A stretch of DNA of 37,820 nt, taken from the UHGV virus genome UHGV-0214728; one strand, 5' to 3'. Shown one piece after another: positions 2,609-17,832 of the stretch (its first letter is position 1; the number at the start of each line of letters is the position of its first letter). A program made the translations under genes and the position numbers. The notes beneath the pieces are model-generated. The model was not told the origin of the DNA, ran no database searches, and saw only the letters and a list, made by a program, of their open reading frames with translations. Origin of the DNA: a virus.

Positions 2609-3715
2609 CTACTCAATGTTTTTGCTTTTCTGCAACTTATCGAATTTTTCATGCAGAGTTTTCGGAAATAGCTCAGTGTAAACCTGCCACAATATATTGA
2701 GTGAACGATGTCCTGTGACCTGCGCTACCTCTTCAATGCTGAATCCTGCTTCAAACAGACGGCTTGCCCCTTCGCGCCGTAGATCGTGATACCTCAGATC
2801 CTCAATCCCCAACTCGTCACGAACGCGCCGATACATGGCTGTTATACTTTTCGGATTGAACGGGAATACCCTGTCGTCAACACGAGGCTGCATCGTCAAT
2901 ATCCTCCAGGCATCACCAAGTAAGGGCACTAACATGTGGTTGCCGATTTTTTTCCTCGGGTCCTTCCTGTCTCTAACGATAACAGAACGCTGAATATCGT
3001 CCACATCCTCCCAGAGAAGACGACAAACCTCTCCAACCCTCATACATGTAAGTATGGAAAACATAAATATTTGATGTAATGGCGCCCCGGTGTATGCCGT
3101 TTCTGCCTTAACTTTAAGAACTTCATACAACCGATCAACCTCGGTAGCACTTGCGCGGCGACTACGTCGCTGTGAAGGACCTGTGATCCCCATATTTCTC
3201 AACCAAACTTTAGCGTCAGATAATTCGTTCAAATTAGCTGGGGCGCCAAAAAGTGGCTTGGCCGCTTCAAGCGCAACACTTAAATACGATACGTCCTGAG
3301 AGATAGTGGAAGGCGCAAGTCCTTGCGCTTTTCGGGTCTGGCAGTGCTCGATAATATGTTTTGCGGTCAAGTCCGTAAGTTTGATTTCTGCCAGAAAGGA
3401 ACGGCCAAGGGTGCGGAGAGAGCTTCTTTTTGATGCACCGAGCGTTATGTTTGGGTGGTTTTCATACTGAGTAAGCAGGTCACCAACAGTTTTAACAGAG
3501 ATCTCTTTCATCTCTTTTTCTGGCTCTGGGAGACCATGCTCTTCAATGTATGCTACACGTTTAGCCCCCCAGGACTTCGCAAGGGTGTTCTTGGAGAAGG
3601 TTTTGTTCTCCCGGTGGACGTACTTACCATTTTGTTTAACGGCTACAGTACAGCGATAACGGGCAGTTCCATCGCTGCGTAATCTTTTCTCTATGGTGAA
3701 GAAAGCCATATCCAA
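2609..3715 (-). CDS. int: Phage tyrosine integrase (site-specific recombinase)
   Basis: Protein of 368 aa with the C-terminal catalytic region '...HDLRREGASRLFEAGFSIEEVAQVTGHRSLNILWQVYTELFP', giving the R...H..R...Y tetrad typical of lambda-family integrases. It sits at the prophage end, next to an excisionase-like gene. Confidence 0.9.
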   Translation of the reverse strand: MDMAFFTIEKRLRSDGTARYRCTVAVKQNGKYVHRENKTFSKNTLAKSWGAKRVAYIEEHGLPEPEKEMKEISVKTVGDLLTQYENHPNITLGASKRSSLRTLGRSFLAEIKLTDLTAKHIIEHCQTRKAQGLAPSTISQDVSYLSVALEAAKPLFGAPANLNELSDAKVWLRNMGITGPSQRRSRRASATEVDRLYEVLKVKAETAYTGAPLHQIFMFSILTCMRVGEVCRLLWEDVDDIQRSVIVRDRKDPRKKIGNHMLVPLLGDAWRILTMQPRVDDRVFPFNPKSITAMYRRVRDELGIEDLRYHDLRREGASRLFEAGFSIEEVAQVTGHRSLNILWQVYTELFPKTLHEKFDKLQKSKNIE

Positions 3716-12542: not shown

Positions 12543-13121
12543 ATGATTAACCCGTCCGAGGTTGGAAAAGCTGGTGAAATGGTCAGGCTGAAAACGCTGG
12601 AGGCCATCTGGATTCAGGGGAAGCTGCGTATGTGGGGCCGCTGGTCCTACATCGGCGGCGGTAGTGGTGGAAATATGTTCAATCAGCTGTTGGCGTCAGG
12701 GAAGATAACGAAGACCGCTATAAACGATGCTTTGCGCCGTATGAAAAAATCAGGCATTACCAAGCCGGAGCTGGAAGCGTTCTTTAAGGAAATCCTCAGT
12801 GGTAAAAATAAAAGCGGCCTGGCTTTTTGTACTGACGAGGAAGGGTTGATAATTGATTCTGTGCTTAGTGCTCAGCTTGTGCGTTCCGGGAATAAAGCTC
12901 TCTATCAGTTAATCAGGGATCGATATGTCTGCCGCATGAGCAAGAAGGCGATGGCGAAAGAGCTAAACGAAAAGCATCCAGAATGGTGCTTACGGACTTG
13001 TGAAAGCAGGATCGATGTTTGGCTAAATCTTGCAGAATCGATGCTTTACGCACCAATGTGTGATGCATTAGGCACAAATGGCGACAGATTTTACTTGAAT
13101 AGTTGCGCGAAAAGTGCTTGA
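12543..13121 (+). CDS. Late-gene antiterminator Q-like protein (phage 82 / QuuD type)
   Basis: The N-terminal 'LKTLEAIWIQGKLRMWGRWSY' resembles the QuuD 'LERWGAWAA' motif. It sits directly upstream of a terminator and the lysis cassette. The start was placed at ATG 12543 (GGAG RBS), not the longer table ORF that overlaps the previous gene. Confidence 0.55.
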   Translation: MINPSEVGKAGEMVRLKTLEAIWIQGKLRMWGRWSYIGGGSGGNMFNQLLASGKITKTAINDALRRMKKSGITKPELEAFFKEILSGKNKSGLAFCTDEEGLIIDSVLSAQLVRSGNKALYQLIRDRYVCRMSKKAMAKELNEKHPEWCLRTCESRIDVWLNLAESMLYAPMCDALGTNGDRFYLNSCAKSA

Positions 13122-13170
13122 ATTGTGATAGGCTCGGGACGTTAAAGCGAACTGAGCAACAAATACTAAT

Positions 13171-13197
13171 AGCCTGCTATAAAGCGGGCTTTTTGTT
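13171..13197 (+). terminator. Candidate tR'-like terminator downstream of Q
   Basis: AGCCTGC-TATAAA-GCGGGCT stem (7 bp, one G-U pair) followed by TTTTTGTT. Confidence 0.35.
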
Positions 13198-13232
13198 ATC
13201 ATTATCTTTTAGGTTGAATCGAAGGTGATGAT

Positions 13233-13805
13233 ATGTGGTTAGGAATACCTTTTCTTTATGTCAAAGAAAGATTAGCAGATACAGTTACTATTGATAAGAT
13301 TCCATCAATAACAGTGGATTCATCGTTTTCTTGGGAAACAATAATTGCGGCTTTTATAAGTGGCTTAGTTCCAGCTTTAATTTCTCTGTATGTCATAAAG
13401 AATAATAACGAATCTATAAGATATCAACAAAAACAAGAAGATAAGAGGCATTTCTCTGCGCATATGCGAGTAGTAATAAGCGAATACGCATATCAATTAT
13501 CAAAAGTAAAAGAGATACATGCTGAGTGCTTACGTTTTAGCTCAATGTTCAGTAGTGTCAAAACTTCTGAGTTGGCAGATAAAATGTCTGATGCCTTGTT
13601 AGAGTTAGAAAGATACAAAGCAAGTTTATTGATTTCTATACCAGAGGATGATGCTGGTAGAAAATTTAAAGAAGAAATAAATGAAATTTCAGAGTCCTTA
13701 TCCGAACAAATAAAATATGGGTTGAAAACAACAAAAATGGAAAAAGTTTGGAATGATGATTATGATGCATTTATATCCAATTCTAATAGATATTTAAATA
13801 AGTAA
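13233..13805 (+). CDS. Moron-encoded protein of 190 aa with an N-terminal TM helix and a charged, coiled-coil-like C-terminal domain
   Basis: About 30% GC. It has its own RBS (AAGGTGA). The TM segment is 'WETIIAAFISGLVPALISLYVI'. A strong terminator follows. It is located between Q and the lysis genes. Confidence 0.6.
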   Translation: MWLGIPFLYVKERLADTVTIDKIPSITVDSSFSWETIIAAFISGLVPALISLYVIKNNNESIRYQQKQEDKRHFSAHMRVVISEYAYQLSKVKEIHAECLRFSSMFSSVKTSELADKMSDALLELERYKASLLISIPEDDAGRKFKEEINEISESLSEQIKYGLKTTKMEKVWNDDYDAFISNSNRYLNK

Positions 13806-13825
13806 TTCGCTGTAGAGTATAATCA

Positions 13826-13857
13826 TAAAAGCCACTAACAAGTGGCTTTTTTATTTT
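13826..13857 (+). terminator. Rho-independent terminator after the moron gene
   Basis: AAAAGCCACT-AACA-AGTGGCTTTT hairpin followed by TTATTTT. Confidence 0.65.
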
Positions 13858-13897
13858 CCTCGCACTGAGAGGACTCACAGCAATAAGAGGGGGCTTA

Positions 13898-14293
13898 ATG
13901 TCCGATCCTTTAACTGGTACCGGCCTGATTTTTGGCGGCGGTTTAATTGGTTCCGTCGTATATGGAGTTATCACCCACACCGATTTTGGTGTGGTATTTG
14001 GGGCTTTTGGCGGCGCGGTGTTTTATGTGGCAACGACCGCAAACCTGACACGTGGAAGGCAAATAGCTTACTTCATGACGTCGTTTATTGTCGGTGTTCT
14101 GGCTGCCGGATTATTAGGCTCAAAATTTACTACCTGGACAGGCTATACGGATCGTCCGCTTGATGCGCTCGGTGCGGTGGTGGCATCTGCTGTTACCATC
14201 AAGGTCCTGACTTTCATTAACAGCCAGGACTTGAGCAGCCTGTTCGGATTACTTTCCCGATTAAGGGGAGGAGGTTCGAATGGTAATAAATGA
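13898..14293 (+). CDS. Lysis-cassette membrane protein with 4 predicted TM segments, Gly-rich. Candidate holin or antiholin.
   Basis: Protein of 131 aa with strong RBS AGAGGGGG. Glycine-zipper-like TM segments. It precedes a second small membrane protein and the endolysin. Confidence 0.45.
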   Translation: MSDPLTGTGLIFGGGLIGSVVYGVITHTDFGVVFGAFGGAVFYVATTANLTRGRQIAYFMTSFIVGVLAAGLLGSKFTTWTGYTDRPLDALGAVVASAVTIKVLTFINSQDLSSLFGLLSRLRGGGSNGNK

Positions 14294-14561
14294 CCCGGCA
14301 GCGCTGGCCAATGCGGTGATATGTGCCGTTATTGTCTGCGCTTTGATGTTTTATCAACGTCGCGGTGCCAGGCATCGCCCTGGTATCTCCATTCTTGCTT
14401 ACTTGCTGGTATTGATTTACGCGAGCATTCCTTTCCAATTTATCTTCGGTCTTTACGTACAGTCCCACTGGCTGGTGGTAATGGCAAACGTAATGATATG
14501 CGCCGCCGTGCTGTGCGCTCGGGGTAACGTGGCGCGTCTGGTCGATACATTGAGGCACTGA
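14280..14561 (+). CDS. Putative class-I-type holin of 93 aa with 3 TM segments
   Basis: Strong RBS (GGAGGAGG). Three hydrophobic segments and a charged C-terminus. It lies immediately upstream of, and overlaps, the endolysin. Confidence 0.5.
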   Translation: MVINDPAALANAVICAVIVCALMFYQRRGARHRPGISILAYLLVLIYASIPFQFIFGLYVQSHWLVVMANVMICAAVLCARGNVARLVDTLRH

Positions 14562-15190
14562 TGAATAAATCACAATTTCAGAAGGCGGCTGGTATCAGCG
14601 CCGGGTTAGCTGCGCGCTGGTTTCCGCACATTGATGCTGCGATGAAAGAATTCGGCATCACTGCTCCACTCGATCAGGCGATGTTCATTGCCCAGATGGG
14701 GCATGAGTCCGGCGGTTATAAAACGCTGGTGGAAAGCCTGAACTATGCCGCCGACAGACTTGTGCCTACGTTCGGTAAACACCGTATCACCGCCCAGCAG
14801 GCCGCCGCACTCGGCAGAACAGCAACGCAACCAGCTAATCAGCGAGCAATCGCGAATCTGGTGTATGGGGGCGAGTGGGGCAAAAAGAATCTCGGTAATC
14901 AGGTTGCCGGTGATGGCTGGAAATATCGCGGTCGCGGCCTGAAACAAGTTACGGGTTTGAGCAACTATCGCAGCTGCGGACAGGCGCTGAAGCTTGACCT
15001 TGTTACCCAGCCTGAGCTGCTGGAGCGAGATGACTACGCTGCACGTTCGGCCACATGGTTTTATGTCTCCCACGGTTGCCTGCTTCATTCCGGTGATGTT
15101 GAGCGCGTAACGCTGCTTATCAATGGTGGCCGCAATGGTCTGGATAAACGCCGAGCGCTGTTTAACCAGGCTAAATCAGTACTGGTGTGA
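14561..15190 (+). CDS. Endolysin, glycoside hydrolase family 19 (chitinase-like lysozyme)
   Basis: 'FIAQMGHESGGYK' is the GH19 catalytic signature. The protein is 209 aa and sits in the expected lysis position. Confidence 0.85.
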   Translation: MNKSQFQKAAGISAGLAARWFPHIDAAMKEFGITAPLDQAMFIAQMGHESGGYKTLVESLNYAADRLVPTFGKHRITAQQAAALGRTATQPANQRAIANLVYGGEWGKKNLGNQVAGDGWKYRGRGLKQVTGLSNYRSCGQALKLDLVTQPELLERDDYAARSATWFYVSHGCLLHSGDVERVTLLINGGRNGLDKRRALFNQAKSVLV

Positions 15191-15696: not shown

Positions 15697-16632
15697 ATGG
15701 CTACTTACAAATATTATAATATACAGATGCTACCTCTAACCAATAGTAAAAAAAATATTGGTAAAGAGGGTTATATTAAATTATTCCAGCATCTGGGAGA
15801 CAAACTTCGCAAAGTTTTGTCATCGGAAGGTGATTTAAGAAATATCGCTATTCCATTGAGGAATGATTTCTTTTTTGCTCCGTATGAAATAAATGCTAGA
15901 GAGGACATGGTTTATGGTCGTTTTTTAAAGTTTGACAAGGTAGATGTTGTTAGAAAAACTATTAGCAGAGTTCAGACTTATGCGGCTGGTTTTGGCGAGT
16001 CTAGTAAGATTTATGAGTATAGGTTTGTATTTGATCCTGTATTGCATATCCTTGCTATCGAAGATAGCCCTTCATTACCTAGCGCAAGTGTTTTATATAA
16101 GGTGCTTAATGAGGTGTTTAAAGATGCGCGCAGGAAATTATATCCATCCTTTCGCATGAGTGTTGATGAATTAACATCTTCTGCTAGTCTAGATAATGTT
16201 ATAAAAGAGTCTAAAGGATATTATTCCTTTAAAACAGAAATAACTTTCTCTAACTCTAATGATTTTATTGAAGGACTAGAAGAATTGCTAGAGGGGGTTG
16301 AGGCTGAAATGAAAGATAAAGGGATTGATAAGCTGGAGCATAAAGAGTCATCAGACAAAGACTCAATAATGACTGACGTTAGTACAATCGCGTTGGTTTA
16401 TGCAGGTTTATCATGCAAGTTTGGGAATACTGAAATATCTTATAAAGACAAAAGCAATAAGAAAAAAGTTTTCAAAATGGCCGATTATCCTGTAAGAAAA
16501 CGTGTGTCTGAGTCTATGAAAAAAAGGGCATCAATTTTAGACTATTATTATGATGTGAAAAACACAATTAATGCAGCTAATAATGAGTCCAGAACAGGAA
16601 GTGGATTGCTAAAGAAAATTAGAAAAGGATAG
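15697..16632 (+). CDS. Cargo cassette gene 1: 311-aa soluble Lys/Asp/Ser-rich protein of unknown function. Candidate sensor component of a defence system.
   Basis: About 32% GC, against about 53% in the flanks. It follows an AT-rich putative promoter gap (15607-15696). Its stop is 4 nt from the next start, which shares an AAGGA RBS. Confidence 0.7.
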   Translation: MATYKYYNIQMLPLTNSKKNIGKEGYIKLFQHLGDKLRKVLSSEGDLRNIAIPLRNDFFFAPYEINAREDMVYGRFLKFDKVDVVRKTISRVQTYAAGFGESSKIYEYRFVFDPVLHILAIEDSPSLPSASVLYKVLNEVFKDARRKLYPSFRMSVDELTSSASLDNVIKESKGYYSFKTEITFSNSNDFIEGLEELLEGVEAEMKDKGIDKLEHKESSDKDSIMTDVSTIALVYAGLSCKFGNTEISYKDKSNKKKVFKMADYPVRKRVSESMKKRASILDYYYDVKNTINAANNESRTGSGLLKKIRKG

Positions 16633-16636
16633 TGTG

Positions 16637-17263
16637 ATGAAAGTTGGTGGATGGGACATTAATCATGAGAATATACTTAAAATAATTAAGTCTATTCCAT
16701 ATGTTGGTGCAATTTTTATCATTGCCAACTTTTATGCTAATTCTGGAGTTTTATCAGACAGGAAGCGAATTGCAAATTTCAAAAATTGGGTGCGGAGGGT
16801 GCTTTCTGGTGTTTTATTTACTTTTGTTTTAAGTTTGTTGATTGTGACATTTTTCAGAGATGGGCTTTACAATCCCAACTCAAACACTGCAGGTCTCGAC
16901 GCAACCCTTGTTGCTTTATCCATATTTCCGAGCATATTAGGTTTTGGCATTGGTGTGTTTGTTGTTGTTTTTGCCCTTCCGAATCAATTCATTGAGAAAA
17001 TAAATCTTATCAAACATAACGGTAAAAATAAAACTTTTGGCGCATCGTTAATGGTTGTCGATATGGCTTATCCTCTAATGGTATATGCTGTTGTCCTGAT
17101 GGGTGAGTTTTTTCTGAAACTATTCCAGGTTGGGTTTATTACACATGTGTTGAGTATCTTTTTATTATTATATGGAATGCTGATGACTTTTGATTTAATA
17201 TCTATGATTTTCATGACAGCGTATGCGCTTTTAGCTACGCAAGCATCAAGAAACCCTAAATAG
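16637..17263 (+). CDS. Cargo cassette gene 2: polytopic inner-membrane protein with about 6 TM helices. Candidate membrane effector.
   Basis: Hydrophobic segments include IPYVGAIFIIANFY, VLSGVLFTFVLSLLIVTFF, LVALSIFPSILGFGIGVFVVVFALP, LMVVDMAYPLMVYAVVLMGEFF and VLSIFLLLYGMLMTFDLISMIFMTAYALLA. It is translationally coupled to gene 1. Confidence 0.7.
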   Translation: MKVGGWDINHENILKIIKSIPYVGAIFIIANFYANSGVLSDRKRIANFKNWVRRVLSGVLFTFVLSLLIVTFFRDGLYNPNSNTAGLDATLVALSIFPSILGFGIGVFVVVFALPNQFIEKINLIKHNGKNKTFGASLMVVDMAYPLMVYAVVLMGEFFLKLFQVGFITHVLSIFLLLYGMLMTFDLISMIFMTAYALLATQASRNPK

Positions 17264-17457
17264 TAGTATTTTTAGTTCGTTCTTTGGCTCAATGATTTTG
17301 TCGATGCAGCAGCCAGGTTCGATAACTAAAGTAATCAATAGAGAATCTTTGCAGTGTGTCAATAAGACGTAGGAAAGGTAAGTTAAGGCACTGCAGTATG
17401 CAAATACTGGTTGTTTGTGATATGTTTAACTACTTGCACACAACCAGGTCGTTAAAT

Positions 17458-17832
17458 ATGGGCGAATATATAAGCGCTACTATTACTGGATTATGGGAAT
17501 CCTATTTGTTATGGTCCAAACAGAAACGAGAGCTAACAATATCCAAGTTAGAAGCGCTATCAAATTTATTGATAGAGAATCGGGCCTACCTGAGGGATTT
17601 CGCACACCAAGGTGTTAAAGACGCTCAAAGGGAACTTGAACTTGCAAAGGAGTGGAGACGTGTCGGTCTCTTATTTCAAGATATTTCCCCTGAGTTGTCA
17701 GACATATGTGATCACAAATCAGACTACTGGATATATTCAGATAGATATACCAAGCAGAAAGTTAATGAGCTAGGGATAACAATAAGAAATCTCGAACACA
17801 AGCTAAGAATGGCAAAGAAAAACCTTCTATAG
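17458..17832 (+). CDS. Cargo cassette gene 3: 124-aa hypothetical protein
   Basis: Start chosen at MGEYIS. The upstream part of the table ORF (MSIRRRKGKLRHC...) looks non-coding. It is AT-rich and a terminator follows. Confidence 0.45.
   Translation: MGEYISATITGLWESYLLWSKQKRELTISKLEALSNLLIENRAYLRDFAHQGVKDAQRELELAKEWRRVGLLFQDISPELSDICDHKSDYWIYSDRYTKQKVNELGITIRNLEHKLRMAKKNLL

Follow-up and report, generated by a model that had tools for sequence, protein, structure and literature searches.

A single-gene cassette in the cargo slot between the Q antiterminator and holin genes of a lambdoid prophage

The DNA considered here, UHGV virus genome UHGV-0214728 (37,820 nucleotides (nt); hereafter the window, meaning this whole stretch), is a largely complete lambdoid prophage with three islands of low guanine-plus-cytosine content (GC); by megablast its DNA falls among Klebsiella temperate phages. 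Between its Q-like late antiterminator gene and the first gene of its lysis module stands an AT-rich open reading frame (ORF) of 190 amino acids (aa), here called ORF X, and its product X. The order, all on the plus strand, is Q, a conserved non-coding block, a terminator (T1), X, a second terminator (T2) and the holin gene. We consider it highly probable that X and its signals form a cassette in a defined cargo slot within the leader of the late operon; how the cassette is expressed and what X does are matters of lesser confidence, taken up in turn below. The features on which the argument draws are these:

12543-13121, plus strand: Q-like late antiterminator gene (DUF1133, E=1.5e-92; Phage_antitermQ PF06530, E=1.2e-11; phrog_753 'anti-termination protein Q-like', E=2.2e-70)
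13095-13160, plus strand: near-invariant non-coding block over the Q stop codon (alignment A9, 12 loci)
13132-13157, plus strand: stem-loop inside the block, GCUCGG..CGU-UAAA-GCG..CUGAGC
13171-13194, plus strand: T1, the intrinsic terminator of the scaffold (tR'-like), an 8-bp stem followed by TTTTT, from a terminator scan
13194-13202, plus strand: extended -10-like motif TGtTATCAT (TGTTATCAT in the window), fused to the T-run of T1 at the left end of the cassette
13197-13233, plus strand: leader hairpin, 5' arm 13197-13209 (UAUCAUUAUCUUU) pairing with 3' arm 13221-13233 (GAAGGUGAUGAUA)
13233-13805, plus strand: ORF X, 190 aa, a member of phrog_18859, with Shine-Dalgarno (SD) sequence AAGGTGA at 13222-13228
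13827-13857, plus strand: T2, intrinsic terminator at the scaffold position, with the cassette-linked allele GCCAC/GTGGC, from the terminator scan
13858-13897, plus strand: holin leader with its SD (CCTCGCACTGAGAGGACTCACAGCAATAAGAGGGGGCTTA), the right-hand boundary of the scaffold (alignment A10)
13898-14293, plus strand: Phage_holin_8 gene (Pfam), the first lysis gene

The GC is 0.30-0.36 over 13100-13900, against 0.50-0.57 on either side, and about 31% within ORF X itself. A sequence-only reading of the window had pointed to this low-GC gene between Q and the lysis genes, to a weak hairpin with a T-run before it and to a strong terminator after it; each of these elements lies where that reading placed it, the terminator scan putting the two hairpin and T-run sites at 13171-13190 and 13827-13850. 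T2 is indeed strong (-12.8 kcal/mol, z -6.3, 0/200 shuffles as good). T1 is a hairpin with a T-run as described, but not a weak one: at -12.7 kcal/mol (z -3.7, again 0/200 shuffles as good) it is the equal of T2.

The case for a slot comes from relatives. By megablast, these match the window through Q to about 13193 and again from about 13858, in the holin leader, with the interval between unmatched. In the prophage of E. coli strain 219 (locus L001) the Q protein is 96.9% identical, the Q-to-holin interval is 156 bp and X is missing. Empty slots of this kind (L001, L023 and L028, intervals of 156-158 bp) keep T1 and T2 in tandem, 13 nt apart; set against filled sites, they make the boundaries of the cassette precise, the T-run of T1 on the left and T2 on the right. 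Fourteen loci were collected by their Q gene only, with a single genome for each species; their slot was empty or filled with 540-1500 bp of unrelated cargo, often of low GC, and none of the 14 had X. Cargo found in relatives includes a 463-aa P-loop ATPase of GC 0.41 (L025 4721-6112), a CspA-like cold-shock protein (L032 5077-5430), a TerB-like 'TciA' protein (L004 3299-3724) and, in some of the loci retrieved through Q, small membrane proteins; at L089 4197-5688 a gene for a DNA polymerase III theta-like protein and an N6/N4 methylase gene lie 3' of an X homologue. Relatives with the same holin_8 / holin_3_7 / GH19 cassette also lack X. By this comparison ORF X is accessory and dispensable for lysis. 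A prophage with a 97% identical Q has none; what was found is a low-GC gene missing from L001, not a lysis component conserved in all relatives at normal GC. The same comparison supports the interval as a variable cargo slot in the leader of the late operon, topologically the slot of the Shiga toxin (stx) genes, as the sequence-only reading had proposed.

The scaffold around the slot is sharply defined. Columns of the block at 13095-13160 are invariant in the 12 loci of alignment A9, slot empty or filled, where the Q proteins are 68-97% identical; over these ~60 nt conservation exceeds that of Q. The block holds TTGAAT (13095-13100), a 17-nt spacer, TTGAAT/TGAATT (13118-13124) and TAGGCT (13129-13134), the last being -10-like in having A as its second and T as its sixth letter. 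We infer from the lambda PR'/qut/tR' arrangement, on which the assignment is modelled, that the block is a putative late promoter with a Q-loading region; a consensus promoter scan did not pick up a late promoter in it. The block and T1 (13128-13200) fold as a pair of hairpins at -26.1 kcal/mol (z -4.4; none of 200 shuffles did as well). The stem-loop at 13132-13157 is too invariant in sequence for a covariation test; the T1 stem carries a compensatory change in L007 (CCCGC/GCGGG to CCCAC/GTGGG). Stem-loop and T1 could form a short constitutive late-leader RNA of ~65 nt, comparable to lambda 6S RNA or to the PasD small RNA (sRNA) of prophages of enteropathogenic E. coli (EPEC); in Rfam the block and T1 leader had no family match at E<0.1.

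At the other end, the T2 stem comes in two alleles in alignment A10: GCCAC/GTGGC at X-bearing loci, and GGCYGCC/GGCGGCC at empty sites and with other cargo. At L006 a separate cassette terminator stands upstream of a degraded scaffold T2. The sequence-only reading had called X a moron with its own terminators, and this needs amending, because T1 and T2 stand in tandem in the empty slots: the moron anatomy holds, but T1 and a T2 are scaffold, and only the T2 allele travels with the cassette. To the right of T2 the holin leader is nearly invariant in 11/11 loci of A10 irrespective of cargo. The scaffold comprises the Q gene, the ~60-nt block, T1, T2, the holin leader and the holin gene, with cargo exchanged between T1 and T2. 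As an aside, CCCCTC/CCTC segments in the holin leader are complementary to the holin SD, GAGGGGG; an SD-sequestering structure there was considered and dropped, the fold being no better than shuffles (z -0.96).

The closest known counterpart is the stx locus of Stx-converting lambdoid phages, where cargo occupies the same slot, between the terminator of the Q gene and the holin gene (downstream of PR'/tR' and upstream of S-R-Rz), and where cargo likewise differs among otherwise similar prophages. In prophages of EPEC and enterohaemorrhagic E. coli (EHEC), PasD adjoins a PF03589-type Q and PasA/C lies directly 5' of the holin-lysozyme operon, and Stx or a sialate esterase fills the space between them (bioRxiv 10.64898/2026.05.13.724894); the interval is thus bounded at its Q and holin ends by short elements that end in terminators, much as T1 and T2 bound the cargo here. 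The differences are that the cargo here is a small membrane protein, neither toxin nor esterase; that the RNAs of the present scaffold are homologues neither of an Rfam family nor of the Pas sRNAs; and that the window has no tRNA genes.

X belongs to a family, and the family belongs to this slot. The statement that no family could be recognised is true only of Pfam, NCBIfam and PADLOC: X belongs to phrog_18859, whose profile it matches over its whole length (E=1e-89; residues 1-190 against positions 2-195 of the 198) and whose function is annotated as unknown. Its close homologues make up 24 clusters, every one from Enterobacteriaceae and carrying the annotation 'hypothetical'; a profile run against 1.84 billion representatives brought the number, at E<1e-3, to 67. 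The more distant members P0026 to P0080 match phrog_18859 with E=1e-42 to 7e-10, all those tested falling in the same PHROG. Members are 190-280 aa long and have in common an N-terminal motif M-x-W-x-G-x-P-[FY] ... [IL]P ... FSWE, one transmembrane (TM) segment and a helical C-terminal region. A chance ORF is ruled out by the conservation of X, its ratio of nonsynonymous to synonymous substitution rates (dN/dS) and its SD sequence.

The close members looked up all sit 111-113 nt beyond the stop codon of a DUF1133 Q gene and 5' of Phage_holin_8, and they do so at loci whose replication modules, terminases and endolysins (GH19 or GH108) differ. For distant members, 47 viral-contig loci were retrieved and their immediate neighbours tallied. 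A Q neighbour was identified at 23/45 loci, from three or four Q families (PF03589 at 10 loci; PF06530 at 10, five of them also DUF1133; the lambda-type PF06323 at three), and a holin neighbour at 20/46, from four families (Phage_holin_8 at 12 loci, an HP1-type holin at three, the P21 S holin, a pinholin, at three and the lambda S holin at two). In look-ups from an unbiased representative library X was the first gene after Q in four cases out of four. Where extra cargo is present X is still first after Q, as in phage LLS, with a methylase, and at L089, with the theta subunit and methylase. X-like genes are more AT-rich than their locus at every family locus, and a chromosomal, non-prophage context was never seen in the loci sampled. 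On these locus comparisons phrog_18859 is a slot-specific family rather than a one-off insertion, and nearly always the first gene after Q.

Three loci deserve separate mention. When four family members were run by tblastn against 50,697 phage records, only Escherichia phage LLS matched (PQ299149.1; L081 3472-4106); as annotated in that record the X-like gene is cut in two, gp49 with 29 aa and gp50 with a start placed 27 nt too late, and a single 201-aa ORF from 3501 bears the family N-terminal motif as MWQGIPF. E. coli ARL09/232 (L002 2613-3203) has in the same slot a distant X homologue, 24% identical over its full length, with an in-frame stop codon; this is probably a pseudogene, its annotated coding sequence covering the C-terminal 127 aa only. 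Locus L086 (2473-4887) holds an intact X in a decayed prophage remnant that consists of an integrase fragment, a 125-aa truncated lambda-type Q and an insertion sequence (IS) element replacing the lysis genes, with chromosomal genes on both sides. Its X cassette retains the promoter-like motif described below (TGCTAAAAT) and the SD-sequestering hairpin, and T1 is gone; this retention hints that X is kept for the benefit of the host.

The sequence-only reading had assumed high-level, Q-dependent expression of X, and for this cassette type that is doubtful: an extended -10-like motif stands between T1 and the ORF, and the leader of a read-through transcript sequesters the SD. Of 27 non-redundant family loci, 16 have a motif TGnTAnnAT (TGNTANNNT) 20-60 nt 5' of the ATG; among 230 control ORFs only five do (Fisher p=2e-14), and in shuffles the count averaged 2.9 and reached at most 12. 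In L054 the motif reads TGCTATAAT. It occurs at six further loci, L086 among them, and was not found in the empty slots of alignment A9.

The 3' arm of the leader hairpin contains the SD and the A of the start codon. The full leader of the window has a minimum free energy of -11.5 kcal/mol (z -2.0), which falls to -1.5 kcal/mol when the leader is cut at the putative start site. Across the family, full leaders fold at -11.5 to -18 kcal/mol; cut leaders of the window, L054 and L016 keep -1.5 to -3.4, and that of L043 refolds differently and keeps -9 kcal/mol. The SD pairs with a segment overlapping and following the -10 hexamer in 16/16 family leaders, and the arms co-vary (CCCC/GGGGG, TACCTT/AAGGTA, CACTCCT/AGGAGTG). 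The probability that the SD is paired is 0.66 in full leaders against 0.43 in cut ones (Wilcoxon p=0.002) and 0.47 in controls (Mann-Whitney U p=0.0013 against full leaders). These statistics come from per-sequence folding and pairing probabilities; RNAalifold on a MAFFT alignment of the leaders returned no structure, the loops differing in length. The hairpin would be present in read-through transcripts and missing from transcripts begun at the cassette motif.

One way to read this arrangement is as a switch made of the two possible transcripts. Read from the left, the cassette has the extended -10-like element at the T-run of T1, then a leader, then ORF X, and last a T2 allele of its own. 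RNA would start in the lysogen from the cassette promoter, just 3' of the 5' arm of the hairpin; the SD would be free, X would be made constitutively and transcription would stop at T2. On induction, Q-modified polymerase would pass both T1 and T2; the 5' arm, now part of the RNA, would pair with the SD and start codon, and translation of X would be damped while the lysis genes are expressed. High expression of stx2 depends on Q-dependent read-through; the X cassette, by contrast, appears built for its own promoter and for damped translation in read-through transcripts. Our judgement of this expression logic, drawn from motif and folding statistics, is evenly balanced.

The protein itself is predicted to be a single-pass protein of the inner membrane, N-out/C-in, with a strongly conserved periplasmic tail (residues 1-33) and a cytoplasmic four-helix bundle. 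An AlphaFold2 (AF2) model, with a mean predicted local distance difference test (pLDDT) score of 74, gives helices at 34-105, 108-135, 140-162 and 167-189 and a disordered tail at 1-32; in the model the long first helix contains the TM segment (~34-56) and continues into the bundle. Hydropathy and charge statistics across the family agree with the earlier description of one TM segment and a helical C-terminal domain: among 47 members none has a second TM segment, lysine plus arginine residues flanking the TM segment average 3.1 on its C-terminal side and 1.0 on its N-terminal side, and the positive-inside rule is followed in 43/47. Regional Nei-Gojobori estimates put dN/dS at 0.02-0.26 for residues 1-90 and 0.17-0.47 for residues 91-190, dN in the C-terminal half being 3-6 times that in the N-terminal half. 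By these rates the X gene is under constraint, its N-terminal part conserved and its cytoplasmic domain evolving faster.

Searches for a known function returned little. X has no match in Pfam and only noise from its TM segment in NCBIfam; a PDB profile search gave coiled-coil noise only, and ten distant relatives yielded nothing meaningful in Pfam, NCBIfam or PADLOC. None of the PHROG matches of X and distant members bears an exclusion annotation, and none is a lysis family. In these searches X resembled no described superinfection-exclusion or abortive-infection family (SieB, Imm, Sp, Cor, the AbiE type and others in PADLOC). Two assignments were rejected: PtuB/HNH_I-A for long relatives (E ~1e-4), which involves a short helical segment lacking in X, and a 4HB_MCP or Tar-like sensor (Foldseek best E=0.03-0.3, TM-score 0.38-0.47), where the likeness is that of any generic four-helix bundle and the bundle of X is predicted on the opposite side of the membrane.

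The more general comparison is with the morons of Juhala and Hendrix (in HK97 and HK022), units of promoter, gene and terminator inserted between essential phage genes, of which the HK97 superinfection-exclusion protein gp15 is an example. The X cassette resembles these as a single gene, AT-rich against its flanks and patchy among close relatives, with a promoter-like element, its own terminator allele and a small, predicted inner-membrane product. To judge by its presence and absence, its composition and its terminator, it has the structure of a moron, promoter activity in the lysogen being putative. It differs in that generic morons scatter over several slots, whereas the X family is tied to one slot across Q and holin families; and, by PHROG and Pfam searches, X has no similarity in sequence or fold to gp15 or to annotated exclusion proteins. 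Lambda RexAB and gp30/31 of mycobacteriophage Sbash, membrane defences encoded by the prophage and expressed in the lysogen, offer a functional model for X; the likeness is conceptual only, X being a single gene with one TM segment and with no similarity to DUF4747 or RexB.

On this model X would be a lysis-independent membrane protein that benefits the lysogen, its foremost candidate role being to exclude other phages or abort their infection (Abi); the N-terminal tail and TM segment would be the part that acts on the membrane, and the variable cytoplasmic bundle the part that confers specificity or senses. An exclusion or Abi function is a tentative assignment, and somewhat doubtful. The account taken whole (a slot cassette, expressed by its own promoter under an SD-sequestering leader, and encoding an exclusion or abortive-infection protein that benefits the lysogen) is possible and falls a little short of an even balance. 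A bolder form would make the phrog_18859 cassettes a dedicated late-leader module, in which the -10 element lies inside the 5' arm of the SD-sequestering hairpin, so that X is translated from its own transcript and silenced in the Q-antiterminated late transcript; this would insulate a membrane-acting, potentially self-harmful exclusion or Abi effector carried within the late operon, sparing the prophage's own lytic cycle, and X would stand for a new family of single-gene defences, with specificity set by the variable cytoplasmic four-helix bundle. In that form the proposal seems to us unlikely.

Several observations weigh against the account. On expression, no -35 element was matched upstream of the cassette motif, and about 11 of the 27 non-redundant loci (~40%) lack TGnTAnnAT. 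The cassette promoter is at present a sequence motif, which could instead be a sigma70-dependent pause element or be kept for RNA pairing. In L034, L035 and L044, which have a lambda-type Q, T1 ends 17 nt 5' of the ATG, there is no promoter-like motif and the SD is free; from that layout X there must be expressed by Q-dependent read-through only, and late expression would not be generally harmful. The logic of insulation is not universal, because this subgroup relies on read-through. On function, a strict position first after Q is unexpected for a generic defence moron, and one in 50,697 deposited phage genomes carries the family, the biology of which is essentially unsampled. Regional dN/dS stays below 1 throughout, so that no arms-race signature of positive selection is seen; dS is saturated for most pairs. 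The best PADLOC matches of X, AbiEii (E=0.002 over 45 residues) and then CARF_RelE (0.012), are both insignificant, and the Foldseek matches in PDB and BFVD were nothing beyond generic helical bundles (best E=0.03-0.04).

A second perspective supposes that X modulates the timing of lysis, as an antiholin-like, holin-assisting or lysis-inhibition factor made from the late transcript just before the holin. This is the main rival, though an unlikely one. X always lies in the late leader, directly 5' of the holin gene at about half of loci, and the family is virtually never found elsewhere in phage genomes; its product, as a predicted inner-membrane protein with a cytoplasmic domain beside the holin in a late operon, recalls lambda S107, T4 RI/RIII and P1 LydB. 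Leaders that occlude the SD and limit translation are typical of lysis genes, the sdi structure of lambda S being an instance that the X leader calls to mind, and the L034, L035 and L044 cassettes, read by Q-dependent read-through only, would suit such a role. Known antiholins, however, are usually holin-specific, and X occurs with four unrelated holin families (holin_8, HP1-type, P21 pinholin and lambda S), is not homologous to the adjacent holins and has no similarity to any PHROG lysis family. X is dispensed with in close relatives whose holin genes are the same, and indeed whose lysis cassettes are identical; their slot is empty or holds unrelated cargo. When other cargo intervenes, X stays with Q and T1 rather than with the holin (LLS, L089); it is intact in the L086 remnant, which has no lysis genes; and its moron features (promoter-like element, own terminator allele, strong AT bias) sit poorly with a lysis component. 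Nor does X class with the known holin or antiholin families, on the variety of holin families, the missing Pfam or PHROG lysis match and the architecture of one TM segment with a 130-residue soluble domain.

Alternatively, X might serve the phage in lytic growth, as the first late protein, blocking superinfection or re-entry of DNA into a cell already committed, or countering a host defence associated with the membrane. Its first place in the Q-dependent transcript is conserved across Q families, some members lack the promoter-like element, and the conserved N-terminal tail would, by prediction, project into the periplasm, the compartment that phage DNA and tape-measure proteins traverse on entry; a related prophage has an Acb2/Tad1-type anti-defence gene near its lysis module, so that counter-defence cargo does occur in the group. 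Yet a need for strong late expression ill fits an SD that is sequestered in the read-through leader of most cassettes, X is kept in a dead prophage remnant, and it is missing from almost all sequenced, actively propagating phages. We regard this reading as improbable.

Least probable is that X serves lysogenic conversion, raising host fitness or virulence in a way unrelated to phages (in envelope stress, colicin or serum resistance), and is like stx or bor only in being cargo: the slot does hold diverse non-phage cargo in relatives (cold-shock, TerB-like and small membrane proteins), the family is found in clinical Enterobacteriaceae and X is kept in a prophage remnant, but the family is strictly phage-linked and slot-linked in this sample, X has no signal peptide or secreted domain and its large domain is predicted to be cytoplasmic, and no similarity to known virulence or stress families was found; we hold it very unlikely.

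To return to the lysogen-benefit account, the Q-to-holin leader is where phages put their most consequential cargo, such as Shiga toxin, and the scaffold of the slot is now defined in a large set of prophages from Klebsiella, Enterobacter, Citrobacter and E. coli. An uncharacterised family that sits almost nowhere else has been identified there, alongside antiterminators and holins of differing families. If the expression logic is true, the motif and co-varying hairpin would be how cargo within the operon gets expressed in the lysogen but is kept out of reach of late read-through, and the arrangement would be a general way of insulating morons. If X excludes or aborts phages, it would represent a new single-gene, membrane-anchored defence family, relevant to Klebsiella phage therapy; if X instead tunes lysis, it would be a lysis regulator independent of holin family. 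At present the finding is a well-delimited accessory gene without assigned function, not a demonstrated new system.

One further slot cargo has the design of the X cassettes. In an Enterobacter bugandensis prophage (L021 4689-5360) the slot gene, of 34% GC, encodes 223 aa with a single TM segment and a C-terminal domain that is helical; it is preceded by TGCTATCAT right after T1, and the N-terminal motif is lacking. Alignment of this protein with the X family by hhalign is weak (probability 28%).

A RusA gene and a DUF968/HNH gene lie 5' of Q, and the holin gene is followed by:

14280-14561: 3TM holin, the second lysis gene
14561-15190: GH19 endolysin, the third lysis gene, with an Rz-like spanin after it

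The lysis genes match PF16931 (E=1.6e-32), PF05449 (E=2.8e-19) and PF00182 (E=2.4e-07) in Pfam, and phrog_198, 217, 181 and 1026.

The second low-GC island (0.33-0.37) lies at 15697-17832, between the Rz-like spanin and the terminase genes. It encodes a DUF4747 protein of 311 aa (Pfam E=1.7e-24; phrog_10040), a multi-pass membrane protein of 209 aa (phrog_27113) whose gene overlaps the stop codon of the DUF4747 gene, and an additional 158-aa ORF. DUF4747 is a motif common to lambda RexA and mycobacteriophage Sbash gp30, which act in abortive infection together with a partner of four TM segments (PMC6426596). The DUF4747 and multi-TM pair (15697-17263) looks like a RexAB-like two-gene defence candidate; PADLOC v2 did not recognise it. 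With this island, defence-type morons appear to occur in this genome. Systems of this kind defend lysogens, which makes the analogy with X plausible, but it is no evidence about X.

In the X-bearing prophage at L006 a gene for an Acb2_Tad1_hairpin-family protein (the anti-CBASS/Thoeris sponge family; 3182-3475) lies just 3' of the lysis cassette, the same relative position as that of the RexAB-like island in the window. The third low-GC region of the window (0.37) is at its left edge, 1-1000, and contains a 214-aa ORF on the minus strand at 297-941.

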